NCBI GenBank assembly: GCA_043814965.1
Contig: JBDRJN010000006.1
Span: 7,838 to 71,837 of the forward strand
DNA from: Candidatus Omnitrophota bacterium
Lineage (GTDB): Bacteria; Omnitrophota; Gorgyraeia; Gorgyraeales; Gorgyraeaceae
Direction: 5' to 3'
DNA: 64,000 nt
Shown: positions 39,001 to 61,613 of the stretch, one piece after another
Numbering within the stretch: position 1 is the stretch's first letter
Layout: each line of letters opens with the position of its first letter
Position numbers and translations under genes: made by a program
The notes under the pieces: generated by a model
Told to the model about the DNA's origin: nothing
The model's input: the letters and a program-made list of their open reading frames with translations, nothing else
The model's database searches: none

Positions 39001-42000
39001 TTGGAAGACAAGAAGGCCATACTTACTGCTTTACTATCAGGCATCTATTAAGGCTTGCAAATAGGCTTGATGACAGAAGAGAGAAAAACCTTTTAAATTC
39101 AACAGAAGATATTATAAGGGTATTATCTATAGAAATACAGGAAGTCTATAGAGAAGAAATAAAAGGCGATAGTGATATAAGATTATTTAATAACACGCTT
39201 GGTGCTATTTTTAAGGCAGGGGACTTGGATAAGGATATAGTTGTAGAGCAGAACAAGGAAGGCGGGATATGTGTAATAGGCCAAACAAGATTTCGCATAA
39301 AGAGCGAAAGAGGAAAGCTTGTACCAGGAGATGACGCTATCCTTAAACATGTTCCTACTACTAAAAAGTATCTTTCAAGTATAGCAAGAGCTGTAGACAT
39401 GAAGGAAAAGGTGCTTCTTGTAGGGCCTACAGGTTCGTCAAAGACATCCCTTATAAAGTATCTAGCGCACCTCACAAATAATGAATTTACAAGAGTAAAT
39501 CTTGATTCCCAGACTGACACGTCAGAACTTATAGGAAAACTTGTCCCGAAGAAAGAAGGGAACGGATTTCAGTGGACTGACGGTATCCTTGTAAAGGCCA
39601 TGACAGAAGGCCAATGGATACTTTTGGATGAAATAAACCTTGCTGAGCCTGATATATTGGAAAGAGTGAATTCGCTTTTAGATGACGACGGCTATATAGT
39701 GCTTACAGAAGACAATAACAGGAAAGTAGAATGCCACCCTGATTTCAGGCTTTTTGCTGCTATGAACCCGGAAAGCTATTCGGGAAGAAATAGATTGTCC
39801 AGGGCTATGAGGAATAAATTTTCAGAAAAATGGATCTCAGGGGATATGCCGAAAGAAGAGATAGAAGAAGTAGTAAGATTTTATCTTACGGATAAAGATA
39901 TTGCAAAGACTTTACCTATTGAAGAGGGCATAGCTGTATCAATATCCAAGGAAATAAGAAAAGCATATCTAACTATAAAAGATATGATTGATTCCGGCAG
40001 ATTAGGCAAACAGAAATTAAGCGGAGGAGATATAGGTGATTATGAGTTTAGCATGAGGGACCTGAGAGATTGGGCAGAATTTGTAAGAAGGCTTTCAAGC
40101 GCATCTAACATGAGCCACACAGAAGCCATGATACAAGGCGCATTGTATATCTTTAGAGATAGGTTAGAGGGGTTTGAAGATAAAAAGATATTTGAAGAAG
40201 AAATACTTAATAAGATAGACCAGGGTTCGATCTCTGCTAAAGAAAAGATAAATATAAGTTCCTTGGATGTAACAGAAGAGGAAGGCAGGGGAGAAATAGA
40301 GATATTAAAGCAGAAAATGGAAGAGGGAAGGCTTGATGAAGGAAAAGATCCGCAGGTAGTAGTATTGAAAAAATTTAAAGACCTTACAAAAAATCTTCCG
40401 ATTGAACTTAAAGGAGACCTTTATACAATAGAGAGTAAATTATCAGGTAATGATATGGCTCAGGGTATCCATGGATTTGCGATGTTGCCAGAGGGTATAG
40501 CTAAGGAATTAGTGGAATTTATACTTAATATGCCTGAGCTAACCCGCACTGATAATAAAAATATCGTTTGGAGCATGAAAAAAGCTGCTATAGATGTAAT
40601 AAGTTATCTTGAGAATAGCGGTATAAATATAAAAGACGCAATGTTATATATTCGTTTGAAAGAGGCGCTTAATAGCCCTTCTCAGGAAGTGAGAATAGCT
40701 AGCGCCTTGGCGATAAATTTAGATAATAATAGGACAAAAAAGCTTATAAAAGACCTCAAAATAGAAAGGCCTGATAAATTACCCAAAAAGGATATAAGAG
40801 AAAAGCTAAGCAAGGATTATCTAGGTATAGATGATTTAACTAAAGATGGAAATTCTAATATCCTTCCGTCAATACTATTTGGTATTTTAGCTCAAATTGT
40901 AATAGGAACAGGTAATCTATTAGGTTTAGAAAATACTTTTCTAAAAGTCGTAGCTTTTATAGGATTCTCCCTGGTTCCTTACGGGGTTTTAGCCTTGGTA
41001 AAGCAAACTTTATCTTTTAGCTATAACCTTATTTTCTCAAGGCAATATAAGATATTAAATAATATATATAAAAAGATACCTTTAAAATTAGCCGATTTTT
41101 ATGAATTAGTAAAAGATTTCTCTAAAAAACTTTTAGACACACGAACTTCAAATCTCAAAGCCGGTAAGGATAAAGAAAAAAATAGACTAACATTTTCGTC
41201 AGTAGTGGGAGGCCTTTTGATGGGCGTGACATTTGCTTTACGAGATGACTATATATTGCCATTTATTGCTGATTTTGTAAAGGATGCTTCAGGTTTGTGG
41301 GCTTCAGGAGGTGTATGGGCCCTACTTGGTTTAATGTGGTGGTCATTTTCATGGGTATTATATGCAGTACAGGATAAAGTCTTAACAGCTTTAAGGGAGA
41401 TGATATACCAGCCTTTATCTCGTAAATACGATCCTAAGAAGAAGGCAAATGAAAATTTTGATGCTTCAAAGGATATCTTAAGAGCGTATAGCCCTGAAAC
41501 AGTACAATCCTTCTCTCATCATAAAAAGCGTGATCCAGAAGAAAAGAACAGCTATTCAGAACTCTATACAAAGAAAGATCTAAATACAGTATTGAGGGAA
41601 GACGCTATAAGGCTGTATGAAGAGAACAACACTGTCAGTATAATGGATATAGCCTTGGAGATCAACAAAGACGAAGACATGCCTAAGAACCATGTGCCTG
41701 GCAAAAAGACAGCAGGACTCGTAAAGACAGTGTCTACTGTAAAGAATCTAAAGAAGATCGCGCTATCTATTGTAATGAATGATCCAGTGCTATTAGTAGG
41801 AGAATCCGGAGTTGGTAAGACCTCGCTCGTAAGATACCTTGCGTATCTGACAAACAATAATTACAGGAGATTTAACCTAAACGGCCAGACAGATAAGACA
41901 GAGTTTATAGGAGGGTGGAAGCCCAATAAAGAAGGCGGTTTTAAATGGGTGGATGGTATTTTAGTAAATGCCTTGAGGAGCGGTGACTGGCTGGTCTTGG

Positions 42001-45000
42001 ATGAGATCAATCTTGCAGAGTCGCAGGTAATAGAGAGGATAAATTCACTACTTGATGATGACGGACAACTTAGGATCACTGAAGGTGAAAAAGAAAGAGT
42101 GTTTATTAAGTCAGCTGAATATAGAAAGAGATCGAAGGAGATAGAGAACAAGGAGAGCATTTTAGAAGAAGATGCTATGAAGAAATTGGAAGAAGAGGGG
42201 ATATTTGAGATAAATCCGAATTTCAGGCTATTTGCTACTATGAACCCAACTGAGTATGCTGGAAGAAATATGCTTTCGCCTGCTCTTATGAACAGGTTCC
42301 GCGTGAAATGGATAGATGATCTATATACTAATGAGAAACAGGCGATCTTGAACTTAACATATGGCGATAAATATAATAACCCTGGGCTTAGCCAGAGACA
42401 TATAGAATATCTCACTCTCTTACATGAGGGCTTGCAGGCGCTTAGCGCATCAAGAAAACTCGGAGAAGAAGAAAGAGACCCTTATTACTATAGCCTAAGG
42501 GACTTAAGGAAGGTCTGTGACAGGGCATTGAAGAGGATGAAAAGCGAAAGTAAACCAGGCGAAGAAGTATCCGATAAATTAATAAATAATATTTTATACC
42601 AGGAATTCTTGGAGGTTTATGGCGACAGGACAAGAGATGAGCATGACTATGAAATATTAAAGGATATTGTATTAGGTACGAGGTTTGCTGGTGCGTTAGA
42701 AGATAATAAGTTTGACATAGTAGATAATAAAAAGACAACTTCATTTGGTGGTATAGAGATTGATAGATGGGACAAAGGTGGAAAATACATTCCTAGTAAT
42801 GAGGCAAAGCTTATAGAAAGCAAAACCACCAATAGGTACCTTAAAAAACTTGCTAAGAGCGTTTATATGAATGAAAAGACGCTTTTGGTAGGCCCTACAG
42901 GAAGCGCCAAGACGTCTTTAGTGAGGGGTTTAGCGTATCTTACAGGGAATAATTTTATGAGGATGAATCTTGATGCGCAGACTGATACAGGGGAGATAAT
43001 AGGGCATTTTATCCCAGAGGAAGGTTCTAAAGATAGATTCAAGTGGGTAGACGGAGACCTTGTTACTGCAATGAAAGAAGGCTATTGGGTGCTCTTTGAT
43101 GAGTTAAATCTTGCTGAGCCTGAGATACTAGAGAGGATAAATTCACTTCTCGATGAAGATGGTTCTTTAGTTATCACTGAAAACGAAGGAGAAAAATATA
43201 TACCTAGCGAACAATTCCAAAAACTAAGAGAGGAATATATCAGTAAGGGCCTTATAGATAATAATAACGAAAAGAATGTAATAGTTGTAACTAACGATAA
43301 AGGCGAGACAATAGAGAAGATATACGAAATACACCCTAATTTCCGATTGTTCTGCGCTATGAACCCAGAAAAATATTCTGGCAGGAACAGGCTCTCTATC
43401 GCAATGCGCAATAAATTGACAGAGATATGGGTACCTGGCCTTACTGATAAGGAAGAGATAAAGCATATAGTAAAAGGCTTTTTAGGGATCCCTGAAGGTG
43501 TGTCCAAGGATGTTATCGCAAGCCAGATGGTGTTCCTAAATGGTGAATTAAATAACCTAAAAGAAGAAGATCCCGAAGGTATATTAGAGGAGTATGAATT
43601 TACTATACGCGATCTAAAGGCATGGAGTGGGTATATAAATGAGTTCCAAGGTAAATTGGGCCTGGAAAACGCTTTTATAAAAGGCGCAAGGTATATATAT
43701 TATGACAGGTTCAAAACCGACAGCGAAAGAAAAGATTTTATAGAACTTATAAGAAAAGCTGTATCTAGGGAACCTCAAGAATATATAAATGAAGTCTTTA
43801 ATGCGAAGAGTAGTGAAGACCTCAAGGAACTTACTCCTGACGAAAACAATAAACTGCATGTATTGGGCGTTACTCTTGATATCAATAGAGAAGGAGGAGA
43901 GTATGTACCTGATATAGATAGATCAAAGCTCGTAATAACAGATGAGACTCTAAAAAATCTTGAAAAAGCAGCAGAATCTGTAAAGCTAAATGATAATCTA
44001 TTATTAGAAGGAGAGACGGGCGCAGGAAAGACTTCTTTAATAAGGTATCTTGCATCTATAACTAATAATAACTTTAGCAGGTTCAATCTTAGCGGCCAGA
44101 CAGAAAAGACAGATTTTATAGGAGGTTTCAAGCCTAAGGATGGTACTTTCGAATGGCAGGATGGCATACTCATAAGGGCATTAAAAGAAGGCCATTGGCT
44201 TGTCTTGGATGAGATAAATCTTGCATCATCACAGGTAATAGAGAGGATAAATTCCCTATTAGATGATGATGGTTTTATAGTAGTTACGGAGAATAAAGGC
44301 GAGAAATATATAAAGAGTGAACAATATCAAGCACTTAAGAAGCAATATACGGATGGCGGATTAAGCGAAGGAGAGGCAAAGGAAAGGCTTAATAATGTAG
44401 ACAGGATATTCGAGATAAACCTCAATTTCAGATTATTTGCCACTATGAACCCAGTAACATATGCCGGAAGAAAGAGATTTTCAAAAGCGCTTCTAAATAG
44501 ATTTAGGGTAAAGTGGATAGATGAGCTCCCAAGAGAAGACCTTAAAGAGATATTAGTTGAAAAATATAACCATACTAATATATCCAGTAAGCCTATAGAT
44601 AAGGCGCTGGATTTTTATTACAGCGCCAAGACCGCGGCAGATAAATACCCTCAGCTAAAATTGTGTTTTACAATAAGACATGTCTTAAGATGGTTCGATA
44701 GGATTAACTCTTATACCGGAAAAGATGTCGATAGTATGTTTGCTCTAGAGGCAGGGGAAGTATTTCTGGATGGTTTAGGAGAAGAGATTTCGGAACAAGA
44801 GATAAAAAGAGAGCTTGTAGAAAATATAAGAAATATCTTTGGCAGTCTGTACGAAGACAATGATATAGATATAGACAAACAAAAAGATACTATTAGCTTT
44901 GGAGAGATAAAGATAGCTGAGAAAAAAGGTAAGAGAGAACAATATATAGATAGAGAGCCTTTGTATGAGACAGATTCTACAAAAACGCTTTTAAAAAAGC

Positions 45001-48000
45001 TAGCAAAATGTGTAAATCAGAAAGAGCCGGTTCTTATGAAAGGCCTTACCGGAGGAGGAAAGACCTCTTTACCGAAATATTTATCTGATCTCACAAATAA
45101 TGATTTTGTTACACTGGACTTGGATGGCCAGACTGATACTGCGCAACTTATAGGGCAATATATCCCTGATGAAAATACAAAAACTGGTTACAGGTGGCAG
45201 GATGGGCTTCTTATAAGGGCAATGGAAAATGGCTGGTGGATACTCTTGGATGAGATAAACCTTGCTGAGGCGGATATATTGGAGAGGATAAACTCGCTCT
45301 TAGACGATGATGGGTATATAGTCCTGACTGAAGACAACAATAGGAAGGTAAAATGTCATCCTGATTTCAGGCTTTTTGCTGCCATGAACCCAGAGACCTA
45401 CGCAGGAAGGGCGAATCTTTCAATAGCGATGCTCAATAAATTTCACCAGATATGGGTTCCAAGGGATTTTACAGAAAAAGAAGATATAGAATTAGTCGGT
45501 CATTACTTAGAGACATATACAGCAATAGATAAGATGTCTTCCAGCGTACAGCATATAGAGTATAGAACTATGATAGAGAAAATGCCTTTTGATGTTATGT
45601 ATAGCGTGGCTGATCCATTAGGATTGATATATATAGGTATTAAATCGTTAAAGTCACTGATATCAAGTAAAAGGCATGGGCTTGATCTAAGTGTAAAATA
45701 TTATAATGAAAAAGGAGAAGAGATCACCGAGGACCTAAATAGAAAAGAAAAAAGAAACCTTAAAAAATTCAATCGCAGGCTTAAAGATATAGGTGTAGTA
45801 GCAAGTTATTTTGGAGGGGATTTTGAGGTAGATATACGCCCAGGGAAAAGATGGGCTATAGGATATCCTAAGGATCCGAATGAAAAACCAGTAATAACAT
45901 TCCCTAAGAATGAGCTTCTGGAAAAAGATAAGGATGTTGTGATAGGCAGTGCTTTACATGAAGCAGGACACAGAGACATATCGTGGATGGATAGTTTCTT
46001 TACCGAAAAAGAATCAAGAAGGTTTTTACTTAATGCAGTCGAGGACCCTCGCGTAAATGAATGGACTACTCTAAAGACAGAAGGGACAAGGAAATTTACA
46101 GAAGCTACATACATAGACGCATACCCAAAAGAGGCTAAGAAGAGTTTTGATGAACGAGGTATTATGCCTCACATACAGTTTGGCCTTGGGCTTATACATT
46201 ATTGGTATTATGGCGAAGAACACCCTGCGATAAAAAATACTAAAGTGTTAAAAGCTCTCCAGGATACAAGAGTGGATGCTGTAAAGGCATATAATATACA
46301 CGCAGGCACTATTACTATAACAAGGGATAAAGATATAAAGGATGGATTTATATTATATTCGCCTACATATGGTGAGCAGAAAATAGACTTGAAACTTGGT
46401 GATAGGCGCGCCTTGAGGATGAAAGACGCAGGGATGGTAGAGAGAACAGGCAAAGAAGAAATAACGTTTTATACAGGAGACGGAGAGATCCCAGTCATTT
46501 TTAAAGAAGAAGATTTCAGCAAGAAGAGCCTTTTAAATATGCGCCCGAGCGCAAAGGATAAGGAAATAGCAGCGATTGAATCAGCAAGGATCATAAAAGA
46601 AAAGATATTGCCTGTATATGAGACACTTGTAAAAGAGTCTGTAGATAATAAAAAAGAGGAGTTGAAAAAAGATAGCCTTAGCGAAGATATACAAAGCCAG
46701 GCCGAAAAGGAAGTAGAAGAAGAATCAAAGAAAGCAGCTGATGCATTAGGCCCAAAGATCTCAGAAGATGATCTAGAGGCCTCGGAGGATAAAAAGACAA
46801 AAGCTAAAGAAGACAGACAGCCAACGCCTGAAGCTAAAGAAAAATCACAGCCAATGTCAGTTGACAGCAAGAATGCGGAAGATGAAGACAAGAGAGATGG
46901 CAGTGATATAAAGGAAAGCGCTGAAGACGTAAAAGATGAACCAGGCGAACGTGAAGAATCCGACAGTGATAAGGAAAATAGGGGAGGCCAGGTTGATGCA
47001 GAGAGCTTCTTTAAAGATATGGTAAGAAAGTTTGAAACAGAAGTACCACAAACTACATATGACAATTACTATAGAGGCATAAGCAGGATCATAGAAAAGC
47101 TCTTTGGTATCCTAGATAATGAGCTCCATAAAGATACAAAATTTAGATATAAAGGCTATTTTGCAACAGGACCTAAGCCTGATATGAGAAAAGCAATGAC
47201 AATGAAAGAGACGGGAGATATGGATATATGGCTTAAACGTGTCAAGGCTATACAAAGAAGTTTTAAATTTAGCTTGGTTCTAGATGAAAGCGGATCTATG
47301 GGGCGCGGAGACAAGACAAACCCTGCTGTACAGGCCATGATAATATTTATGGAGGTTCTCTCCAGGTTGAACATAGATTTTTCTATAATAGGCTTTAGCG
47401 ACTCGCCTTCTATTCACATGAACTTTGGTGAAAGCTTCAAGCATAGTAAGAATAAAGTAGTAAAAGAAGTTATCAGATACATGGGTAAAGGCGGGACGAA
47501 TGACGCAAAGGCAGTAGAAAAGGCAACTGCCTTATTAGATAGGGAGATAAGTGATACAAAGATCATGATAGTGGTCAGTGACGGCTATGGAAATAGGGAG
47601 CTATTACGCAAGAATTTATTAAAGGCATATAAAAAAGGCATAGATGTAATAGGTCTAGGCATAGGATCTGGCATGGATTATGTTAAGGAGGTCTATGACT
47701 GCGCAAAGGTCATAGGGGACTTGAATGATCTGCCCAGGATAGTAGCCCAGGTGCTTATAGACATAATCGTAAAAGGAAAACACGTAAGGCGCAGTAATAG
47801 AGACAACGAGGTAGACATCTCTGGGGAAGTAACTAAGATAAATAAAACACAATCTGACGTCCCGGATAGCTTGACGCAATTAAACTCCATACCTATATAT
47901 CAATATATCGGTGCAGGCATAAAAGCGCTGAAGGCAGGCAGGAAACATCTAAAAGATATTAAGAAAGAGAGAGAACTCAAGAAAAAAGAGGAAGAAGAGA

Positions 48001-51000
48001 TCGCAGAACGCATGGAATTATCCAAGCCGACAGAGGAATATAAACCGACAATACATTCAGCCGGAGATCTAGCGATCCATGGAATAGACAATATGTCGTT
48101 AGAGATAGAACAGGGTAAAAACGCATATCTATACGGGACAATAAATCTTAATGTTGCAGCCAAGAATGTTACTGAGGCCTCAAAGGTAGTGCAGGATATA
48201 AAAGCCGGTTTGTTCACAGTTACTAAAAAAGATAAATTAAAATTAAAAGATATATTTGAAAAAATAGAAATAGTCAATGCATGGGATGAATCCGGCAAGG
48301 AGATCTTTGATGCTGGCAAAGAAGAAGAAGGCCAGGTCGGCACACTTTTAGGAGCAAGGTCTTTACGCTATAGGATAAAAGTTCCATGCGAAGAAACAGG
48401 CGAGTTCAAATATGCTTTAGGGTTTACATTCGATCCAAAGCTCAATGGAAAAAGCTGGAGTTATGTAAGAGATAATATTGGCATAAGTTCCTTTGCAGTA
48501 ATAAATGTGATAGATAAGACCCAAGCTTTTGAAAACAAGATCTTAAATGTACTTAGCGGGATATCCTTTAGCAGTTTAGAAGAGTTGATGGATAGGTTTG
48601 ATAACCCAGAGGAGAAAAAGAATATCTATGCCGCACTTAACAACCTATACAGCAAAAAGGCTATCAGTGTCATCTATGATAATATCGACCAGAAAGAGCT
48701 CCGTTATAGTTCGACTTCTTCCCTGGAAGAAGGCTTAAAGAACGGATCAATAATAGAGGCCAAGTCAGGCACAAAGATAAGGTTTTTTACAAAAGACGCG
48801 ATAGAAAAATCCGGCAAAAACTTAGTAAGGTATAAAGAAGGGTTATTTGATGTCCTGGATAAAGCTACGCTGCAATCCAAGCTTGATAAAAATGAGATAA
48901 GGCCTGTTTATACCAAAGAAGGCACCCTGTTTTATGAGAGAGAGTTAGTGCACAGTATGATAAAAGAGGAAAAGATCATACTCAGTAATTTCATTAACTC
49001 CGGACAATTTTTTATATTGGCAAAAGACAAAGATGATTATTTAAGAAAAGAGTTAAATAACTGTAAGAGTATATTTGAAGAGAACTTTAAGGACGCATCA
49101 AAGAACATACATGAGGCCTATGGATCAGCCCGCGAGATCTTTAATACTCCACAAAGGATAAATAGCTTAAAGAGGGCAGTGGAGATGGCTGTAAGCTTAA
49201 AGAAATGGAACGCTGATGACTATACTATCGCAGCTGCATTTTTGGAGAACATAGACCTTGAGAATAAAGATCATATAAAAAGGATAAAACAATTTGACAA
49301 AAGGTCAAAGGTCTTGAATATCCTTAAGAATTTCAGGAATGTATCCAACCTTCCGCATATACTAGAGCTGAATCTGGAGAACCATCTTGATATCCAGTAT
49401 AAGATGGACATGATCATAAAGACCTCGAGGACCCCGGAGGTAATGCTGCTTACATGGGCTGATATATTGAACAGGGTGAAGTCCGAGGAAAGAAAAGAAA
49501 ACTTTAAATATATTGCTCAAGCAGCAAGGACGCTTTACGGCCCCTTAGCAGATAGATTAGGCAGGGAAGATGTTGCCAAGGAGATCTGGCATACTATCTT
49601 TGAAAAGCAAGACCCGGAATTATGCAAGAAGGTGACAGAGGCAATGGAAAAAAGAATAGGCATGACCCTTAGCGAAGGAGAAGTGTTTTTGCATGAAGCA
49701 AAACTCAAGATAGAGAAGTATTTAAGAGACAATGATCTTAAGGCAAAGGTATACATAAGGGTCAAGTCACCTGTCTCTATGTTCGACAGGGCAAGAAAAG
49801 GACAGACAAAATATTCTACAGAAGAGGTCTTGCGCATTATCGAGACATCAAAAATGCTCAGGGATACATTAGGTATCATGGTGGTATTTGATGAGGAAGA
49901 ATACAAGATACACCAATCAGTATATTATATCGCAGCTGAGATAGCCAACATAGAAGAGGCATCGAAGTTCAGGAGAGAGGCGCTTTATGTCGACTATCCA
50001 AGGTATAGTTTCTACATAAAAGCAGAGAATGGCGCAGATATGAGCTTTATGGCTAAAGACAAAGATACCTATAAGACATATAGAGTAGGAGAATCTGCGC
50101 ACTGGCATTTTAAATTAAAAGACAGGATACTGGAAGGAAAGAAGCAGAGTTTTGAGTATTGGCCGGATGGCCTGGAATATGCAGGAGATTTTGAAAAAGA
50201 TTTTAATGCTCTAGTAATCGAACTGGATAAATATAGTTATGTGTATTATGCAGAACCTTCAAAGCAGTACACCTATCCCAAGATCATAAAACTTCCCTCA
50301 GGTTCTATTGCTGTAGACCTTGCGAGTGAAATGGGTGTATTGAACAGTGATTTTTCAGGAGTCACAGTAAAGAACCTTAAACATGACTATAATTATGGCA
50401 AAGAAATGGGAGGAACTATAAGATCAAGCCATCAACCATATGGCATTGACTATCTATTAAAGGATGGAGATATAGTCACTCCGTATAGCAGCAGAGAAGG
50501 ATTTCCTGAAAATAAAAGACTAGCCTTGACAGAAGCAATGAATAGATCGAAAAATCAGGCTGCCAGGGATTTTATAAAAGGGAAATTAAATATGTCCAAT
50601 CTAAGGATAGCTCAATGGGGAAAAGAGAGCTATCCTATACTGAATAAGATATGGCGTAGTATACTTATGGTGACAGGAGTTACACCTATACATGAACTTG
50701 GCCATATTTACGGAGCTCTTTTACAAGATGATGATAAAGTCATAAATAGCACTAAGACAATAGAAGAGTTTGAGATAAATACCAAAGGAGTATTCTTTGA
50801 AGGGAGGCTTAAGGGCCTGAAAGGGTCTTCTTTACTGTTAGGGGCTGCAGCAAATCTGATAGCTGTACCATTGGTAATATTTTCAAGTTTAGGAGCTGGA
50901 TTTGATAGTGTGTTGACGTATGTAGCGGGACTTCATATTATAGCTGGCCTTGTAGAAGTATTTTCCAGTAAGGGTGATGTAAGAAAGTTTTTTGGAGAAA

Positions 51001-54000
51001 GGCCGCTAAAAAGCATCATAGAGGATATACGTAACGGCTTGAGATCCATAAAAGACGATATATTTAAAGATAAATATAATATAAATAATGATCCTATAGA
51101 GCTTACTACACGAAAGAACTTTGAGGAGATCACCGAGAGATTCGAAGGCATAATAAAACACGGCAAGGTCTCTTCATCTGAGAAATTGCGGGATAAGATA
51201 ATACTTCTTACTATCAAGACGCCTCCTTTAAGGAATATGGCAGTATGGACGCTTAATAATATAAGTTCACGTCCAGCGCTGAGAGAAAGGCTTTCATTTA
51301 TACTTCCCATGCTGAAGTGGCTTCAGTCAAAATTTATAATCCCTGTATCAAGTAACCTTGAAGAGGCGACATATGAAGCAGAAAAAGTGATCCTTGATAA
51401 TAGGAAGAATGGCATTGGCCTTACACTTGACAGCGTCGGAGATGCTGTGCATTCAGAGGAAGAAGCAAAGCTGCATGTCGATCATTATCTCAGCATGATA
51501 AGGAATCTCGGGCCTAAAGCAAAGGACTGGGAGAAAAATGAATCTCTCGACAATGTAGAAAGGCTTCATTTTTCAGTAAAGCTTAGCGCTATTGTATATG
51601 ACGCGTGGAAAAAGAAAGGAAGAGGGTTCGCTAATAAATCAAAGATAAAAGAGACACTTAAGACACTTATAAGAGAAGCTAGCATTTACAATGCCTTTAT
51701 CCGCATTGACCTTGAAGAATACGGATACCGCGATACTACCATGGATATCTATAAGGAAGTCATTGAAGATCTTGCCAAGGAGGATGAGAATACCGTGGTA
51801 AGTGATGACAGGGGCACATTGAGGGTAGGGGTCGTAGTGCAGGCATATCTAAAAGATTCAGGAAAAGTCTTAAATGACTTATTGAACTGGGGAGAGACGT
51901 ATCATTATCGCGTGCCAATAAGGCTAGTAAAAGGCGCGTATGACGACAAGGAAAAGAAATGGGCAAGAGGCGAGTATAAAGAGGGCGAAGATGTATTTAA
52001 TGGAGGCAGGCCCTACCCAAGCCCTGTATTCAGGGAAAAGGAATCCACAGACGCTCATTATGAACTATTGAGTGAATATCTTATCATGAATAATGATAGG
52101 TTCCAGACAGCTATTGCATCGCACAATATCCGCTCTATATCACACGCAATGAGCCTTGCTGAAAATTATGAAGTTGATAAAAAGGATATTGAAATACAGA
52201 TGCTTTATGGCATGGGAGACCCTGTGAAATATGCTATCAGAGATCTAGGTTATCGTATTCGCGCGTATGCTCCTATAGGCTCATTTATAGAAGGTATGAA
52301 ATACTCGGGCCGACGCCTTAAAGAGCTTGCGAATAAGAGCAATGCGCTTACTAAGACCATGGCATGTGATTATAGATTCTTGAGAAGATTGAAAAAGGCC
52401 CCTAAATTCCAGTATGGCGACAGCCCTATTTATGTAGCAGAGGAATTTGTGGGAACACTTGAAGGGAGAAAAGAGGAGCTGCGCCTTAATAAAGCAAGAA
52501 GATGGTATGAGATATTCCCGTATAGTTTTATTATTGAGCATCCGTCTATCTTAGTATCGTGGCTCAATCATATACCTAACGCGGTCTTATATGGTTTTAT
52601 AAAACAGTTATTCCAGCCTTTTAATTATAAGTCCAGGGAGTTGGTGGATGAGTTGAGGCACAGCCTAAGACAAGAAAGGACATACAGCGCATTTATACTG
52701 TTGGATAAGATAAAAAAGATCACAAATAGAAGGTCACTTAAGTACTTATTGAATATTCTGTTCGATAAAACCATAAACAGCGAAAAGTATGAAGAAGTAA
52801 TATTAGAGATCAGAGACCATATCCAGCATATAAGGCATAAGCTTTATGCGTATAATGTAAAAAAAGATGCAAAGAACATGAAATACGATGAATACGACGA
52901 TATAAAGAAAGATTATCCATTTTTCTTTGATGATAATCAAGGCACATACCAGCATTTACGAAAGATAGCAAGCTATAAAGTGAGAAAATATAGAAGCATG
53001 AAAGGCAGTATAAATATATGGATCCCCGGGGGAGTGTCATTCTTTGAAGACGGGCCCAAGATACCATCTGCGTATATGGCAGCTATAATATTCCTGGAAG
53101 AAGCAAGGAAACAGGGATTAAAAGGCGAAGAGTTGGAGGAATTTAAAAAGGACCTTAATATTACTGTTACAGATGGCAATAAAGACGCGCTTTTACATGG
53201 CGAGATAGGGTCTTTTAATATCAATGCATTTATAAAAGAAAGCAGGCCTCTTACAAAAGAGGATAAAGAGATAGTCGAGAGATATTTTGATATCACAAAA
53301 GCTAGCGGGAGGTTAAAGGTAAAGCAAGATATAAGAGATATAATAAAATGCAAGAATGAACTATCTGTAAATTATATAAGGCCAGGGTTTTTTGATATTA
53401 TCATAGATCAGTTCGTTGAAACCAAGATAGAGATGCGCAATGAAGGGGACCGCTGGCCGATCCTAAATAACATACGTGTCGGAAACTTCATAGAAAGCCT
53501 TAAAATAGACGGAGATATCATCACTACGGGGGACAAGGGTTTTGAAGATAGTTCTTTTTTAAGAGGATATTCCAGTAAACTTCCTGTAAGCAGTTATTTC
53601 GGGGGAGAGAAATTGGAAGGATTTGCAAGGGTATACCAGAAGACATCACCTGCGTTTTACGATAACTGGCGGGACTTTGCTGCTGAGATCAATATGTTTA
53701 AAATTATTAAAAAGGATGGGATTAAATTAATGGATATCAGCCGGAAGATATTGGATACAGCATATGACTTGGCAGAGTTTGTTCATGGAGGACAGATAAG
53801 GACCAATAATAAAGAACCATATATGGAACATCTTGTAAGGACCACTATGATGCTCAGGGATGTATTCAATGTATTGGATAGATTCAAGGTCTCAGAACAT
53901 ACAAAAGTAGACCTATCAGGGTTATCCAATGATGAGATAAGACAGATAGATGACCTGTCAAGCGAGATAATATCTTCGATCGCGCTATTACATGATTCAG

Positions 54001-55631: not shown

Positions 55632-55666
55632 TACAATAATTACATTAAGTTAAGGAGGTGAATAAG

Positions 55667-56002
55667 ATGAAGTCAGGAGATTTTAAGGAAAGACGGAAAT
55701 TCAAAAGACTACAGATATCTGTTCCTGCGAAGATAAGGTATGGATCAGCAAGTGGAAAGGAAAAGGTATTGGAGGGTGTCACTCTTGACGTTAGTTTCAA
55801 CGGGGCATATTTGGTAAATATCAATATTGACAAGATCAATCCGGAAGACAACGTAAATATGTCCCTTTCAGTGCCTCGCGACAATTCCAGGGATTTTCCT
55901 TTTTCTCGGATCGTAGGTAAAGCAAGGGTAGTAAGAGTCGAGAAAAATGCCTTGGCGCTTGAATTTAATAAGGATGTTTCTAGGTTTTTTATTGCAAATT
56001 AA
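55667..56002 (+). CDS. PilZ-domain protein (c-di-GMP receptor)
   Basis: 'RRKFKR' (RxxxR) and 'DVSFNGA' (D-x-S-x-x-G) c-di-GMP-binding motifs at correct spacing. AAGGAGG at 55652-55658 lies 8 nt before ATG 55667. The ORF track begins at an in-frame GTG at 55658 inside the RBS, so the ATG is the likelier start. Confidence 0.7.
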   Translation: MKSGDFKERRKFKRLQISVPAKIRYGSASGKEKVLEGVTLDVSFNGAYLVNINIDKINPEDNVNMSLSVPRDNSRDFPFSRIVGKARVVRVEKNALALEFNKDVSRFFIAN

Positions 56003-56044: not shown

Positions 56045-57370
56045 ATGGGGTGTCGGTGTAGCAGATCTATGCTTTTTTTTATGACGAGTTTGTTCACTGT
56101 TTTTTTAAGTATTTTCTTGATCAGCTGTTCTCCTACAGCAAAACCTCAGGATTCAAATACAATAACTATATGGCACTGGATGAGCGATAGAGAGGGAGCT
56201 TTTAAAGAACTTGCAAGGATATATGAAGAAGAAAAAGGAATAAAAGTAAATTTTGAGCTTTATGCCCCGTCAGAGGTTTATACACAGAAGATAAGGGCCG
56301 CGGCGCAGACTAATACCCTCCCAGATATATTCGGCATACTTGGTAAAAAAAGAGATCTTGCTAGTTTTATAAAAGCAGGGCATATATATAATCTTACAGA
56401 AGATATGAAAGCCAATAATAGCGAATGGGAGAACAGGCTTTTTAATAAGGCTCTCTCTGTGAATGAATTTAAATCAGAAAATAGTTTTGACATAGAGCCT
56501 GGCATATATGGAATACCTCTGGATGTAACTAATCTCCAGATGCTATATAATAAGGACCTGTTAAGGCGGGTAGGATGGCCTGAAGACAGCCCTCCTGAGA
56601 CATGGGAGGAGTTTATAGAAGCCTCAAGGCTTCTTAATGAAAATAATATCCAGGGGTTTATAAGCGGCTGGGGAGAGATATGGATGATAGATTGCTTTGC
56701 TAGTAACTATGCATTCAATATAATGGGTGAGAAAAAAGTCCTTGATACCATAAAAGGCAAGGTGCCTTATACAGATCCTGATTGGATAAAGGTCTTTGGC
56801 CTATTTCGCCAGATGAGAGACGAAAAGATGCTGGCAAAGGGTGTTGTTACAATGGTCAATAAGACAGCAGAACAGCTTTTTGCAAATTCAAAGGCATGTT
56901 TTGCATTTAACGGATCTTGGTGTGTAAATGTCTATAGCGGCATGAACCCGGACCTAAATTACGGAGCAATGCTTCCTCCTAAAGTTCTTGACAAAAACCC
57001 GATGGTTATATGGGGAGGCGCTGGATCGAGCTTTATGGTCAATAACAGGGTCAGTGGCCCAAGGAAGGCGGTTGATTTTCTAAGATGGCTTACAGATACT
57101 CCGCAGCAAAGCTACCTTGCCGCAGCCACAAGAAACCTTCCTTCCAACAAAGAAAGCTTGAAAGATATCCCAGATATACTATTTCAATTCGCGGATGATA
57201 TGGATAATACTACGCACCCAAACGTATGGGGCGTTTCTGAGTTCCCGGAAGTTATAGAGACGTTCAACAAGGGCATACAGTCGATCATTATAGGCGAAAA
57301 GACGCCAGAAGGATTAGCTGGCGAGGTACAGGCAGTTAAGATGCGGGAGATGGAGAAGGCAGGACAATAA
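56045..57370 (+). CDS. ABC transporter substrate-binding lipoprotein, carbohydrate (family 1, MalE-like)
   Basis: N-terminal signal with lipobox 'FLISC'. Size and composition typical of sugar SBPs. Immediately followed by two MalF/MalG-type permeases. GGAGG at 56036-56040 (a short spacer, so ATG 56069 is an alternative start). Confidence 0.75.
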   Translation: MGCRCSRSMLFFMTSLFTVFLSIFLISCSPTAKPQDSNTITIWHWMSDREGAFKELARIYEEEKGIKVNFELYAPSEVYTQKIRAAAQTNTLPDIFGILGKKRDLASFIKAGHIYNLTEDMKANNSEWENRLFNKALSVNEFKSENSFDIEPGIYGIPLDVTNLQMLYNKDLLRRVGWPEDSPPETWEEFIEASRLLNENNIQGFISGWGEIWMIDCFASNYAFNIMGEKKVLDTIKGKVPYTDPDWIKVFGLFRQMRDEKMLAKGVVTMVNKTAEQLFANSKACFAFNGSWCVNVYSGMNPDLNYGAMLPPKVLDKNPMVIWGGAGSSFMVNNRVSGPRKAVDFLRWLTDTPQQSYLAAATRNLPSNKESLKDIPDILFQFADDMDNTTHPNVWGVSEFPEVIETFNKGIQSIIIGEKTPEGLAGEVQAVKMREMEKAGQ

Positions 57371-57396
57371 CGGGTTACGGGTTACGGGGTACGGGT
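57371..57396 (+). repeat. G-tract repeat 'CGGGTTACGGGTTACGGGGTACGGGT' (G3N4G3N4G4N3G3: canonical G-quadruplex-forming pattern) filling the whole SBP-permease intergenic gap
   Basis: Read directly; 69% GC in an otherwise AT-rich context, abutting the ATG at 57397. Confidence 0.8.
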
Positions 57397-58287
57397 ATGA
57401 AGGTCCAAAAAAATATACTTGAAAATTACTTATTTATATTGCCAGCAGTACTGATATTTTCTCTATTTTATATATATCCTTTCTACAAGGTTTTTACGCT
57501 TTCTTTGTGTCAATGGGATGGCATAGCTGGTTTTAGTTTTGTAAAAAGCTTTGTAGGTTTAAGGAACTTTAAGGAACTTTTGTTTCAAGATAGAGTATGG
57601 TGGCAGGCTATGGGGCATGCAGGATATATCACACTTATTGCCCTGACATTTCAAAATGCATTAGCCTTGAGCCTGGCTTGGGCGTGCGACAGGGATATAA
57701 AAGGAGGCAATATATATAGGGTAATATTCTATCTTCCGCCTGTGTTATCAGAGATAGTAGTGGGGCTTGTGTGGCGCTGGATATATGACGGAAATTACGG
57801 CCTCCTGAATCACTGGCTTACTAATATGGGATTGCATCATTTGGTAAGAGATTGGCTTTCGGACCCAAAGACAGCTTTAACAGCAGTCGCTGCTATCCAT
57901 TGCTGGAAGGGTTTTGGATGGGGATTTATTATATTTTTAGCAGGCTTACAGACTATACCTAGGCAGCTCTATGAAGCAGGAAGAGTAGATGGGGCGAATT
58001 CATGGCAGATGTTCAAGAGCATCACTTTACCTTTGATGGTCCCTGTATTTATATTGGTATCTGTACTTACGATATTAGGCACTATGCAGGTATTTGTATT
58101 GATACTTTCTATGACAAATGGCGGCCCGGGTTATCATACAGAGGTCCCCGTCACAAGGATCCTGACCACAATGGTAGGTTCTTCAAGGTTTGGTTATGCG
58201 TGCAGCCAGGGGATAGTATTTGGAGTTATATTATTAGCGATTTCATTTATACAGATAAAGCTCTCTAAACATACGTATAAAACATGA
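57397..58287 (+). CDS. ABC transporter permease (MalF/UgpA-type, binding-protein-dependent transport system inner-membrane component)
   Basis: Six hydrophobic helices; EAA loop 'EAGRVDGANSWQMFKSITLPL'. Confidence 0.85.
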   Translation: MKVQKNILENYLFILPAVLIFSLFYIYPFYKVFTLSLCQWDGIAGFSFVKSFVGLRNFKELLFQDRVWWQAMGHAGYITLIALTFQNALALSLAWACDRDIKGGNIYRVIFYLPPVLSEIVVGLVWRWIYDGNYGLLNHWLTNMGLHHLVRDWLSDPKTALTAVAAIHCWKGFGWGFIIFLAGLQTIPRQLYEAGRVDGANSWQMFKSITLPLMVPVFILVSVLTILGTMQVFVLILSMTNGGPGYHTEVPVTRILTTMVGSSRFGYACSQGIVFGVILLAISFIQIKLSKHTYKT

Positions 58288-58365
58288 ATAGTCATGATAT
58301 CAAAAATCAAAGATTAAAATGCAAAATTATAGATTAAAATTCAAAAATAAAAAAGAGAGAAATTA

Positions 58366-59214
58366 ATGGAAGAGACTGCTATATACAAACTAAGGCATTT
58401 TACTAAACACGCGCTTATGCATATATTTTTAGCAAGCGTAGCAGTCACATGCGTGTTCCCTCTTCTCTGGATGATAGGCTCAGCTCTCAAGACGCAGGAG
58501 ACTATATTCAGCGATATGAGTATAATCCCCAGAAACCCTATGTGGAGCAATTTTGTCATGGCCTGGACCAAGGGAGGATTCGGGATGTATTTTTTTAATA
58601 GTGTTATTTATACAGTGACAGTCGTGACTGGCATTGTCATAATCGCATCTTTGGCTGCATTTGCATTTTCACGGCTTAAGTTTCCTGGTAAGAATATCTT
58701 GTTCTATATGTTTTTAGCGGCTATGATGATACCTCTTCCAGGCAGCTTTGTGCCCTTGTATGTACTTATGACAAAGCTCCATCTTGTAAATACAAGGATC
58801 GGTTATATACTATGCATGATAAACGTAGGGCTTTCTTTCAGCATATATTTACTTAAGACATTTTTTGACAAGATGCCTTCTGCGCTTGAAGATGCAGCTA
58901 GGATCGATGGATGCAATAAACTCGGCATCTGGTGGAATGTTGCCTTGCCGCTCGCAAGGCCTGCTATAGCAGTGATAGTGATATTCAATTCTTTAAATGT
59001 ATGGAATGAATATATACTTGCGACACTTATATTCTCAAGCAAGTCTTTAATGCCTCTGCAAAGGGCTCTTATGATATTTCAGGGTACTCACATAACAGAG
59101 TATCCGCTTTTGATGGCAGGCATCACAATAACAGTTTTGCCTATAATATCAGTATATTTATTTATGCAGAAACATATTATAAAGGGTATAACAGCAGGGA
59201 TTATTGTCGGGTAA
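58366..59214 (+). CDS. ABC transporter permease (MalG/UgpE-type)
   Basis: EAA loop 'EDAARIDGCNKLGIWWNVALPLARP'; six TM helices; operonic with the preceding permease. Confidence 0.85.
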   Translation: MEETAIYKLRHFTKHALMHIFLASVAVTCVFPLLWMIGSALKTQETIFSDMSIIPRNPMWSNFVMAWTKGGFGMYFFNSVIYTVTVVTGIVIIASLAAFAFSRLKFPGKNILFYMFLAAMMIPLPGSFVPLYVLMTKLHLVNTRIGYILCMINVGLSFSIYLLKTFFDKMPSALEDAARIDGCNKLGIWWNVALPLARPAIAVIVIFNSLNVWNEYILATLIFSSKSLMPLQRALMIFQGTHITEYPLLMAGITITVLPIISVYLFMQKHIIKGITAGIIVG

Positions 59215-59235: not shown

Positions 59236-59307
59236 GGGTACAGGGTACGGGAAATGGAGTAGAGATGGCTGATTACGGGTTACGGGTTACGGGGTACGGG
59301 GTACGGG
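59234..59307 (+). repeat. Second cluster of GGGTTAC/GGGGTAC G-tract repeats (G-quadruplex-type), flanking and overlapping the start of the glycoside hydrolase gene
   Basis: 'GGGGGTACAGGGTACGGG' 59234-59251 and 'CGGGTTACGGGTTACGGGGTACGGGGTACGGG' 59276-59307. Same unit as 57371-57396. Confidence 0.8.
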
Positions 59308-61613
59308 TTTGCGCGGCAATACTATTGTTAACATCATGGGCTGGGCCTGTATCATGCGAAGAAGTCGATACTTTAGGATTAACTGTCTCTCAAGAAAAGC
59401 CCTTTTCTCCCAATGAGCTTATATTACGCGCATGGGAGGCATGGGGCGCAAAGGATTATGAGAAGACATTTGAATATACAACTAGATGTATCGAGCTTTA
59501 TTCTGATGAGGCAAAAAAAGAGCAGGCCCTTCTAAAAGGTTTTCCCGCTATAGATGCAATAGAGCAATATGCGGCTTTAAATGCTGTCGGGACAAGTTTT
59601 TTTATACAGGGAGAGGCGTATCTATTGAATGGTAAAATAGATGAAGCCAGGAAGGCATTTAATACAGCTATAACAGAATATAGTTATTCTCAGAACTGGG
59701 ATCCGAGGGGATGGTTCTGGAGCGTGAAAGAAAAGAGCATTGCCAGCCTTGAAAAGCTTGATAAAAAAGAGGAGATAGATGAAAAAAAGAAGATAGCTAT
59801 AGCAATACCTAAGACAAAGGTCACTCTTTATGACGCTGGTAAAGAAGAGATGATCGATTATGAAAAATACGGGGAATTTAAGAATGTCGGTAAGTATAAT
59901 TATAAATATGTGGTCAATGACCAAGAAGGCCTTTCTCAGGCAGCGGGGGAAGGGGTCTATCCTAACACCTCAAGCATCAATTGGGACCAGAATTATATAA
60001 GAGTAAAAAAAGAAGGAAAGCTCAAAGGCAATCATTGGGACTTTATAAATACAGATGACCTGGAAGCAAATTTTTACAAATGGAGCACTGCGCCAGAACC
60101 TACAGGTGTCAAGCTCTTTTATGCAGCTATAGCGCTTGAAAGATCAGGTTTATTAAAACATGCGATAAAGACCTATTATTCTATAGCGGTGCATTTTCCT
60201 AAATCAGTAGGATGGACTTATTTTCGCACGCCCTGGTATATCGCTCAGGTCGCGCTTGATAGGATAGATTATATATTAAGGAATAACCCAGAGCTTGGAA
60301 TGGAGTTAAAAGATGCGGGTATATATATCGAGAATGGATTCGATAACAATATAGCAAATGACATATTCGTAGTAAATCCTGGAAAAATCGTAAAGCTTGG
60401 TATTGTAGATAGGATGAAGAATAAATTATCAGGCAAAAAGGGTGTTGAATTAGGGGGTGTGATAAAGCAAGTCGGCGACGGCAGGGTAGACCTTGTGAAG
60501 TTCAAGAATGGACACTGGCAGCTGAGGTTGGAAGGCAGGCCTTATCTGATAAAAGCCCTTGCGTATACGCCAAATAGAGTTGGGCAAAGTCCTGATGAAG
60601 GTACGTTGGAAGATTGGATGCAGGCAGACTATAATGGCAATGGAAAGTGTGACGCAGTGTACGACAGCTGGGTGGATAAGAATTATAACAATATAAAGGA
60701 TAAAGACGAAGAAGTGGTAGGAGATTTTCAGTTATTGAAAGACATGAACTGTAATACTATCAGGCTATATCACCATGCATCCAATAAAGAGCTCTTGAGG
60801 GACCTGTATAATAATTACGGTATAATGGCGATAATGGGAGATCTTTTGGGGGCCTATACCGTAGGAAGCGGCGCTGGCTGGTACGAAGGGACTGATTATA
60901 AAAATGAGGAACATAGAAGAAACATGCTAGAGAGCGTACGTAAGATGGTAGAGGAGTTCAAGGATGAGCCTTATGTACTTTTCTGGATGCTTGGTAATGA
61001 AAATAATTATGGTGTTGCAAATAATGCCAAAAAAGACCCAGCGACTTACTATGAGTTTGTGAATGAAGCAAGCAGGATGATAAAGTCTATTGACAGGGAC
61101 CATCCAGTTGCAGTGTGCAGCGGGGACTTATTGTTCCTCGACGAATTTAGTAAAAGCTGCCCGGACGTAGATATATACGGGGCAAATGCATATAGAGGTA
61201 AACACGGGTTTGGAAAGAGTTTTTGGAACAATGTAAAGATCGTGTGCGATAAGCCTGTAATAATAACAGAATACGGCTGTCCCAGCTATATGGAAGGCAG
61301 ATCAAGGGAATTTAGCGAAGACAGGCAGGCAGAGTATCTCAAGGGCAATTGGGAAGATATAGCGTATAATACAGCAGGCAATAAAGGCGTTGGTAATGCG
61401 ATAGGAGGAGTGCTTTTTGAATGGATTGATGAGTGGTGGAAGGCTTATGAACCGTCAGTACACGATGCTGCTAGAAATTGGTCTGGCCCGTTCCCCGATG
61501 GCTGGAACTATGAAGAATGGCTTGGGATAGTAAGCCAGGGGAATGGAGAGCATAGCCCTTTTCTAAGGCGGCTTAAAAAAGCTTATTTTGTTTATAAAGA
61601 ACTTTGGATATAA
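59265..61613 (+). CDS. Secreted glycoside hydrolase, clan GH-A TIM-barrel catalytic core (GH2/GH5-like) fused to an N-terminal helical (TPR-like) region
   Basis: Acid/base motif 'VLFWMLGNENNYG' (WxxGNE) and nucleophile motif 'VIITEYGCPS' (compare GUS 'MITEYGVD'); 'FEWIDEWWK'; N-terminal hydrophobic signal. Paralogous to 62448-63662. Confidence 0.6.
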   Translation: MADYGLRVTGYGVRVCAAILLLTSWAGPVSCEEVDTLGLTVSQEKPFSPNELILRAWEAWGAKDYEKTFEYTTRCIELYSDEAKKEQALLKGFPAIDAIEQYAALNAVGTSFFIQGEAYLLNGKIDEARKAFNTAITEYSYSQNWDPRGWFWSVKEKSIASLEKLDKKEEIDEKKKIAIAIPKTKVTLYDAGKEEMIDYEKYGEFKNVGKYNYKYVVNDQEGLSQAAGEGVYPNTSSINWDQNYIRVKKEGKLKGNHWDFINTDDLEANFYKWSTAPEPTGVKLFYAAIALERSGLLKHAIKTYYSIAVHFPKSVGWTYFRTPWYIAQVALDRIDYILRNNPELGMELKDAGIYIENGFDNNIANDIFVVNPGKIVKLGIVDRMKNKLSGKKGVELGGVIKQVGDGRVDLVKFKNGHWQLRLEGRPYLIKALAYTPNRVGQSPDEGTLEDWMQADYNGNGKCDAVYDSWVDKNYNNIKDKDEEVVGDFQLLKDMNCNTIRLYHHASNKELLRDLYNNYGIMAIMGDLLGAYTVGSGAGWYEGTDYKNEEHRRNMLESVRKMVEEFKDEPYVLFWMLGNENNYGVANNAKKDPATYYEFVNEASRMIKSIDRDHPVAVCSGDLLFLDEFSKSCPDVDIYGANAYRGKHGFGKSFWNNVKIVCDKPVIITEYGCPSYMEGRSREFSEDRQAEYLKGNWEDIAYNTAGNKGVGNAIGGVLFEWIDEWWKAYEPSVHDAARNWSGPFPDGWNYEEWLGIVSQGNGEHSPFLRRLKKAYFVYKELWI

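Follow-up and report, generated by a model that had tools for sequence, protein, structure and literature searches.

Two RelA/SpoT-derived units in the tail of a giant protein of a Candidatus Omnitrophota bacterium

Introduction

Does a giant protein with two regions that resemble RelA/SpoT homologues (RSHs) carry one such enzyme in two displaced halves, or two separate units? The question is raised by a 64,000-nucleotide (nt) stretch of DNA, termed here the window, from contig JBDRJN010000006.1 of a Candidatus Omnitrophota bacterium (assembly GCA_043814965.1; positions 7,838 to 71,837, forward strand). The window contains a giant open reading frame (ORF) of at least 18,526 amino acids (aa) in one uninterrupted frame, whose N-terminus may extend beyond the window (Table 1). 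Surveys of RSH proteins distinguish long enzymes, either bifunctional or monofunctional, from small ones with a single synthetase or hydrolase domain (PMC3153485, PMC7229694). A preliminary description of the locus proposed that a synthetase-like core and an HD hydrolase domain in the tail of the giant protein represent a single RSH, split and in reversed order.

The motifs on which that proposal was built are real. All six quoted strings are found in the frame of the giant ORF (Table 1), and a proline dehydrogenase (ProDH) domain does lie between the two regions. Both regions are also RSH-derived, and their likeness to RSHs goes well past what chance would produce. A hidden Markov model (HMM) of 23 canonical long RSHs, built without the window sequence, matches the upstream region at aa 16341-16773 with an independent E-value (i-E) of 1.6e-20, and an HMM of 42 HD_4 proteins, also built without the window, matches the downstream HD domain in two pieces (i-E 2.7e-8 and 1.5e-7). 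The idea of reversed halves, however, does not stand. A Pfam-significant HD_4 domain lies directly 5′ of the synthetase-like core and a TGS-like domain directly 3′ of it, both of which had been overlooked; N-terminal to its synthetase-like (SYNTH-like) domain the upstream unit contains an HD domain of its own, and it is completed by the TGS-like domain. As this unit already has HD, SYNTH-like and TGS-like parts in the canonical order, the two regions are two independent RSH-derived units and not the halves of one enzyme.

Domain order and fold of the upstream unit

The upstream unit, or module, spans nt ~49026-50519 and consists of HD, central helices, SYNTH-like and TGS-like parts, which is the order of the N-terminal part of canonical long RSHs. 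Its HD domain is detected by Pfam as HD_4 (PF13328) at nt 49146-49560, with 30.4-32.9 bits against a gathering cut-off of 27.2, and is matched as well by HMMs built without the window sequence; the downstream HD stays below the Pfam HD_4 cut-off. The sequence YGPLADRLG, first taken for an RSH linker helix, is instead the C-terminal helix of the upstream HD domain.

The synthetase-like assignment was to be checked with the RelA_SpoT profile (PF04607). On Pfam it fails, with no match to this region even at E-values up to 10, and the TGS-like domain is also below the Pfam TGS threshold; RSH homology nevertheless stands by profile-profile comparison, by the canonical HMM and by fold. When the divergent protein family that includes the module (described below) was aligned by hhalign with the 23 canonical RSHs, the probability was 100% and the E-value 1.1e-48 over 321 colinear columns. 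A search with the family profile recovers Rel, RelA and SpoT proteins of the canonical type at E-values of 5e-48 to 7e-32, all of which carry PF04607, PF13328 and PF02824. In phmmer comparisons with sequences of the Protein Data Bank (PDB), the module is colinear with Rel_Seq (1vj7, residues 55-260 and 325-347) and with Mycobacterium tuberculosis Rel (5xnx, residues 127-348).

For nt 49083-50582, AlphaFold2 folded all three sub-domains confidently, with a predicted local distance difference test (pLDDT) score of 81.4 and a predicted template modelling (pTM) score of 0.83. The comparison with Rel structures that had been suggested for this region bears out its RSH origin: long RSHs account for each of the best 28 Foldseek matches in the PDB, with full-length SpoT at the top (7qpr, 8e-14), and ribosome-bound RelA (5iqr), Bacillus subtilis Rel (6yxa) and Rel_Seq (1vj7) are among the other matches.

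The module is thus homologous to the N-terminal half plus TGS of long RSHs, with ~15-20% identity. It differs from them in being embedded at residue ~16,350 of a far longer protein and in its surroundings, as no Pfam match to the C-terminal regulatory domains (helical, ZFD, RRM/ACT) was detected between the TGS-like domain and ProDH. No further RSH-like copies were found in the giant protein by scans with the canonical-RSH and HD_4 HMMs, and nothing reached E ≤ 1e-3 when the module alone was used in a word-indexed, single-sequence search. Another Pfam candidate for the SYNTH-like region, AKAP7_NLS (2′5′ RNA-ligase-like; E 0.004, 17.6 bits against a cut-off of 24.4), was rejected as a chance match because three lines of evidence (profile-profile comparison, the canonical HMM and fold) each point to an RSH SYNTH domain at this place. 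Matches to SpoVIF and Sporozoite_P67 are sub-threshold and were disregarded.

Catalytic residues of the upstream unit

The hydrolase signatures of the upstream HD domain have been replaced. The sequence FLENIDLE (within AAFLENIDLE) is found in place of LHDvvED, and ADILNR in place of ADRLHN. Among 37 members of the divergent family, none has Asp at the position equivalent to D78, the Asp of the HD dyad. By this alignment the pseudo-HD is a trait of the whole family, comparable to that of RelA.

The catalytic residues of the synthetase are taken here to be R-x-K, Asp264 and Glu323-x-Gln325 in Rel_Seq numbering. The family conserves the R and K of R-x-K (36/37 and 37/37), the catalytic Asp (37/37) and the sequence AHW (35/37); the equivalent of E323 is Glu in 29 of the 37 members and that of Q325 is Gln in 24. 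Inspection of these residues in the window copy gave a divided result. The R, K, Asp and AHW are kept, but Glu is replaced by Ser and Gln by Met, and the Arg269 equivalent is also Met, with the segment MSFMAKD aligned to vEvQIRT of the canonical domain. MAFFT and hhalign agree on this mapping, which has no gap from the flanking Gly anchor to the AHW anchor.

With its relatives the window module shares the pseudo-HD (LLHK and FADKL in the family), the motifs RVKSxYS, DLLGI and AHWxYK, and a TGS-like domain with an insertion. It has neither the Glu kept by most of them nor a match to PF04607, which is matched individually by 16 of the 18 aligned family members (best E 2.9e-17). The proteins or fragments that contain the eight members without the catalytic Glu all exceed 1,100 residues, and the closest relative of the window module, P0001, also displays the Glu to Ser change. 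Judged by these residues, the window module is the most degenerate member of the family. With its catalytic Glu and Gln replaced, this copy is unlikely to carry out net alarmone synthesis, and the SYNTH-like domain would be unable to make (p)ppGpp by the canonical mechanism.

Dead domains in RSH proteins are known to be retained as regulatory or scaffolding parts, either the HD (Escherichia coli RelA) or the SYNTH domain (Acinetobacter baumannii SpoT, 7qpr) (PMC9974481). The window module has lost its HD residues as in RelA and its SYNTH Glu and Gln as in Acinetobacter SpoT, and is in this sense doubly degenerate. Whereas the partner domain is active and a full C-terminal regulatory region is present in those two proteins, neither domain of the window module looks active, and an intact RSH active site is found only in a separate domain ~1,050 residues downstream.

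The downstream HD domain

In a 43-sequence alignment that includes the window, residues H32, R37, H47, H101, D102, E105, D106, K178, D181, R182 and N185 are invariant. As aligned, the downstream HD keeps every predicted metal-ligand and catalytic residue. The suggestion of repurposed pseudo-enzymes, made at the outset as an alternative, fits the upstream unit.

The downstream HD is of the RSH (HD_4) subfamily, as first described, and not a generic HD domain. A profile of the window HD and its homologue in another Omnitrophota protein (P0031, see below) retrieves 45 proteins, many of them 158-290 aa long, and PF13328 is present in 45 of 45. The best PDB sequence matches are to PaSAH (6yvc, 6z3n/o; E ~1e-3), a small alarmone hydrolase (SAH). 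The AlphaFold2 model of the domain (pLDDT 82.9, pTM 0.81) is matched best in Foldseek by PaSAH, human and Drosophila Mesh1, RelH and Leptospira SAH, and then by the HD domain of Thermus thermophilus Rel. The SAHs reach 1e-4 (template modelling score to target 0.77) versus ~0.6 for HD-GYP and YpgQ, which is some three to four orders worse. By sequence and predicted fold, this domain is an independent RSH-type hydrolase closest to the SAHs.

With these enzymes (PaSAH, 6yvc/6z3n; Mesh1, 3nr1/5vxa; RelH, 7qod; Leptospira SAH, 7qoe) the downstream HD shares a single RSH-type HD fold and the complete motif set. SAHs are stand-alone proteins of ~160-230 aa, however, whereas the window domain is internal to the giant ORF, between a conserved domain termed 'mid' and a GNAT domain. 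Between its first His and its HD dyad an extra 37 aa (aa 17954-17990) are inserted, and its identity to the solved SAHs is ~16-20%.

An active downstream HD might, in the manner of metazoan Mesh1, dephosphorylate a 3′- or 2′-phosphorylated nucleotide that is not an alarmone, such as NADPH or 3′-phosphoadenosine 5′-phosphosulphate (PAPS), and be tied metabolically to ProDH and GNAT instead of to stringent signalling. Mesh1 structures with NADPH or PAPS are among the fold matches (5vxa, 9chy), the domain is flanked by domains of metabolic type (ProDH, GNAT), and the insertion, near the substrate-binding helices, could alter specificity; moreover, the synthetase-like domain in cis appears dead and a local alarmone source is not evident. 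Sequence alone cannot tell the substrate. Yet the best matches in both sequence and fold are to SAHs of bacteria, whose substrates are (p)ppGpp or (p)ppApp, and the window domain has every residue that is invariant in the 42 HD_4 relatives, the Arg and Gln of the nucleotide-binding motif among them. A Mesh1-like activity is considered rather unlikely.

Relatives and recurrence of the pairing

An HMMER scan of 1.84 billion representative proteins found 80 relatives of the upstream module. The top ~35 form the divergent family, with 25-30% identity over HD-SYNTH-TGS and E-values down to 4e-32, and the lower-ranked relatives are ordinary long RSHs of 700-760 aa. The family is centred on Omnitrophota (MBU4311175.1, MBU1871293.1, MFA6358535.1, MBU1784119.1 and, from Ca. 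Orphnella occulta, MDP8297324.1, labelled 'HD domain-containing protein'), with one member from Saganbacteria. It includes stand-alone proteins of ~680-771 aa with HD_4 and RelA_SpoT in HD-SYNTH-TGS order; other members form part of proteins several thousand residues long, in the company of Fic, GNAT, HAD, methyltransferase and further enzyme domains. On sequence comparison, then, the upstream unit is a member of a sizeable and so far unstudied RSH family that is centred on Omnitrophota and whose HD domain is predicted to be dead throughout.

Long Omnitrophota proteins with the RSH-like module (P0001, P0006, P0010, P0013 and P0175) add Fic, HAD, methyltransferase, generic HD, HTH_8 or GNAT domains, and some of them are annotated at source as 'phosphoglycerate kinase' or 'phosphoglycerate mutase'. 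Such architectures suggest that many of the giant proteins consist of enzyme-like domains strung together.

In three cases, the window, P0031 and P0071, one polypeptide contains both a dead module and, separate from it, an intact HD. P0031, a 7,967-aa protein, is encoded on contig JAGVGA010000019.1 (locus L001) of an Omnitrophota metagenome-assembled genome (MAG). It has an RSH-like module with a pseudo-HD (302 bits to the family profile), and also a mid+HD block with all HD motifs intact, which is homologous to that of the window at 1e-46 and 6e-37. The module and the intact HD are ~5,500 residues apart and the domain order differs from that of the window. The GNAT region of P0031 is ~3,300 residues upstream of the mid+HD block, whereas in the window GNAT follows the HD; from this difference in position it follows that domains shuffle as cassettes among giant proteins. 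In P0071, a fragment of 2,124 aa, the module shows the Ser/Met substitutions of the window copy, and an intact RSH-type HD lies ~750 residues downstream. An alignment scan with mid+HD gave one locus, L001, in genome contigs and nothing in metagenome contigs, and no close relatives of the 2,228-aa tail were found in scans of either type of contig.

These relatives bear on the proposal of a single RelA/SpoT that was split and circularly rearranged, with its halves cooperating as a bifunctional (p)ppGpp synthetase/hydrolase. Both regions are RSH-derived and in one polypeptide, and a dead upstream HD with a live-looking downstream HD superficially resembles complementation. But the upstream HD is in its canonical place ahead of SYNTH and TGS-like domains, and the whole divergent family has this order, the stand-alone proteins included; the distance and altered order in P0031 point to separate cassettes, and the window SYNTH lacks the catalytic Glu and Gln. 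Such a cooperating enzyme is judged extremely improbable.

A second alternative is an array of effectors or toxins, in which the module is an active non-canonical pyrophosphokinase of the toxSAS, Tas1 or CapRel style that makes (p)ppApp or pyrophosphorylates tRNA, the SAH-like domain in cis serves as antidote or reset, and the tail is one among several enzymatic 'warheads' of a predatory or epibiotic Omnitrophota cell. Relatives of the module do share long proteins with Fic, GNAT, HAD and methyltransferase domains, and most family members keep R-x-K, Asp and Glu-x-Gln. ToxSAS toxins can be neutralised by SAH-type antitoxins (PMC7229694), RSH-type adenosine 3′-pyrophosphokinase domains are found as C-terminal toxins of polymorphic toxins (PMC12226406), and a role in predation has been proposed for Omnitrophota giant proteins (bioRxiv 10.1101/2023.11.21.568195). 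The window copy, however, has lost the catalytic Glu, and long RSHs match the module far better than do CapRel, Tas1 or small alarmone synthetases. PADLOC found no match, and no small immunity-like gene is seen downstream of the giant ORF. The toxin hypothesis is regarded as unlikely.

It may also be asked whether both units are decaying relics without selected function in a very large, fast-evolving protein. Consistent with decay, catalytic residues are gone from both domains of the upstream unit, its SYNTH and TGS parts have fallen below Pfam thresholds, and domain order and content are highly variable among relatives. On the other hand, the reading frame is intact over 55 kb, and the upstream module, for which a confident fold is predicted, still has the R, K, D and HW that do not vary in the family. 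The downstream HD retains every catalytic residue at 36-40% identity to P0031, mid+HD is conserved as a block, and an intact second HD is present in P0071 as well. That both units are relics is very unlikely.

Proposed role of the two units

The reading preferred here, considered probable though by no great measure, is that a non-catalytic module of RSH origin, with a regulatory or sensing role, is joined in the tail with an active 3′-pyrophosphohydrolase, the two having been acquired independently. The upstream unit would be an '[hs]' pseudoenzyme, retained as a folded regulatory, scaffold or ligand-sensing module; its role would parallel those of two known pseudo-domains, the HD of RelA and the SYNTH of Acinetobacter SpoT. 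The downstream unit would be a Mn2+-dependent 3′-pyrophosphohydrolase of (p)ppGpp, (p)ppApp or a closely related 3′-phosphorylated nucleotide. Because a two-segment hydrophobic hairpin separates the module from ProDH, this two-helix hairpin would place both units on the same side of a membrane. The cytoplasmic face is proposed as their site of action because the neighbouring AAA+ ring, ProDH and GNAT need ATP, FAD and acetyl-CoA.

Several points weigh against the combination of a sensor module with an active hydrolase. Homology, domain order, fold, the state of the residues and the recurrence among relatives are direct results of the analysis; the inactivity of the upstream unit, the activity and substrate of the downstream one and the membrane topology are deduced from them. 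The functions of both units are read from comparison of sequences and from predicted folds, and a sensor or regulator role for the upstream unit is suggested by analogy. The inactivity of its SYNTH domain depends on residue mapping by alignment, and an Asp two residues before the lost Glu, in the same predicted strand (ADMSF), could conceivably substitute for it. The alignments used by AlphaFold2 included RSH homologues, and the fold matches are not fully independent of sequence homology. The downstream HD is sub-threshold in Pfam (HD_4 and HD, 13.6 bits each), although the weak HD_4 score is attributable to the 37-aa insertion, which splits the match. Mesh1, an enzyme of the SAH fold, has been solved with NADPH (5vxa) and with PAPS (9chy), and an alarmone substrate is not proven for the window domain. 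Finally, the co-occurrence of the two units is based on three sequences, and most relatives are fragments truncated by contig ends.

A more elaborate hypothesis can be framed, that of a dedicated alarmone module in Omnitrophota giant membrane proteins, in which the doubly inactivated long-RSH unit senses (p)ppGpp, another nucleotide or tRNA and gates the midasin-like AAA+/VWA machine, while the tethered SAH locally erases alarmones, either those of the cell itself or those of an attached prey or host, which would be kept out of the stringent state. It is speculative and rather improbable.

Neighbouring domains and genes

The positions of the tail domains, the quoted motifs and the downstream genes are collected in Table 1.

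Table 1. Features of the giant ORF tail and of the genes that follow it (positions in the window)
Feature	Position (nt)	Strand	Remarks
Giant ORF	6-55586	+	single frame; contains every tail part (both RSH-derived units, ProDH, mid, GNAT)
Pseudo-HD of upstream RSH-like module	49146-49562	+	ends in helix YGPLADRLG; H-D replaced by E-N
YGPLADRLG	49536-49562	+	string in giant ORF frame
SYNTH-like (putative pseudo-synthetase) domain	49668-50129	+	RVKS, Asp of LRDTLG and AHWHFK kept
RVKS	49758-49769	+	string in giant ORF frame; second RVKS at 49473
LRDTLGIMVV	49857-49886	+	string in giant ORF frame
TGS-like beta-grasp domain	50232-50489	+	carries inserted hairpin
HELGH motif and hydrophobic hairpin	50691-50963	+	HELGH at 50691-50705; two transmembrane-like segments at 50835-50963
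Proline dehydrogenase domain	51381-52343	+	Pfam Pro_dh E 7e-64; partial NCBIfam PutA/ProDH matches
'Mid' conserved domain	52623-53690	+	~350 aa, function unassigned; directly precedes downstream HD
SAH-like RSH-type HD hydrolase domain	53724-54365	+	full catalytic set (R, H, HD, ED, K..DRLHN)
HGGQIRTNNKEPYMEHL	53784-53834	+	string in giant ORF frame
ALLHDSVEDF	53982-54011	+	string in giant ORF frame
IKISDRLHNLST	54219-54254	+	string in giant ORF frame
GNAT acetyltransferase domain	54699-54962	+	Pfam Acetyltransf_1 E 2e-5, 25.3 bits against cut-off 20.7
PilZ gene	55658-56002	+	downstream of giant ORF
Sugar ABC transporter binding protein and two permeases	56045-59214	+	downstream of giant ORF
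TPR+GH2-like protein gene	59265-61613	+	downstream of giant ORF
225-aa ORF	61700-62377	+	no assigned identity; downstream of giant ORF
GH72/GH42-like protein gene	62448-63662	+	downstream of giant ORF

The segment between the RSH-like module and ProDH displays a zincin-like HELGH motif (weak Peptidase_M54 match, E 0.0065) followed by the hydrophobic hairpin, and is also present in P0026 and P0063. A hairpin combined with ProDH is found in P0045 as well (533 aa; ProDH 9e-86), and the two may represent a membrane-anchored ProDH cassette. NCBIfam gave the partial ProDH/PutA matches alone and no RSH model. The 'mid' domain has no Pfam match and no PDB sequence relative; its homologue in P0031 (phmmer 1e-46, 36% identity) also adjoins the HD. 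The GNAT domain is part of a C-terminal conserved region, 54400-55583, that is homologous to P0031 aa 2250-2531 (2e-68).

Upstream of the tail, the first ~9,000 residues of the giant ORF (nt 6-27600) have no Pfam match at E ≤ 0.01. A hydropathy scan revealed ~20 hydrophobic transmembrane-like segments scattered over the ORF. From ~32000 to 47700, Pfam detects HEAT/Armadillo repeats, then six AAA_5 domains of the dynein/midasin type with AAA_lid_7 and MDN1_4th lids; a VWA domain (nt ~47270-47670) follows the AAA_5 array, ahead of the RSH-like module. The region thus has the arrangement of a bacterial midasin-like AAA+ ring with MIDAS, just 5′ of the RSH-like module. The HEAT region contains an internal duplication, ~33924-35348 versus ~36180-37604 (aa 11307-11781 and 12059-12533), with 34% identity over 513 aa (E 8e-56). 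The duplicates share a near-identical transmembrane-like segment, LFLKWLGIAVIAGAVLTVL in one and IFLKWLGIAVIAGAILTVL in the other.

Sugar-uptake genes follow the giant genes of both the window and L001, and the window has in addition the PilZ gene. The sugar-binding protein of the window is 59% identical to one encoded 3′ of the L001 giant gene (Omnitrophota MAG DeMMO2_40, L001 19789-21102); a look-up by exact sequence gave no record of the window protein. All substantial genes of the window are on the + strand, and both GC skew (+0.14 to +0.30) and AT skew are positive in every 2-kb interval, the downstream genes included.

Significance

The current classification of RSH proteins does not describe a doubly degenerate long-RSH unit that is fused in cis with a separate, intact SAH-like domain. 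The protein that hosts this arrangement, of at least 18,500 residues, has in addition a midasin-like AAA+ ring and VWA, ProDH and GNAT domains. The papers on Omnitrophota giant proteins that were searched do not mention ppGpp, alarmones or RelA/SpoT, and none of the papers in the collection searched brings 'Omnitrophota' together with 'ppGpp'.

If the functions proposed here hold, the locus would add an example of RSH domains turning into pseudoenzymes, and alarmone hydrolysis or binding would offer a testable biochemical handle on giant proteins that are otherwise functionally obscure. Should the tail indeed be a dedicated alarmone module, the activity of a giant protein would be tied directly to starvation signalling.

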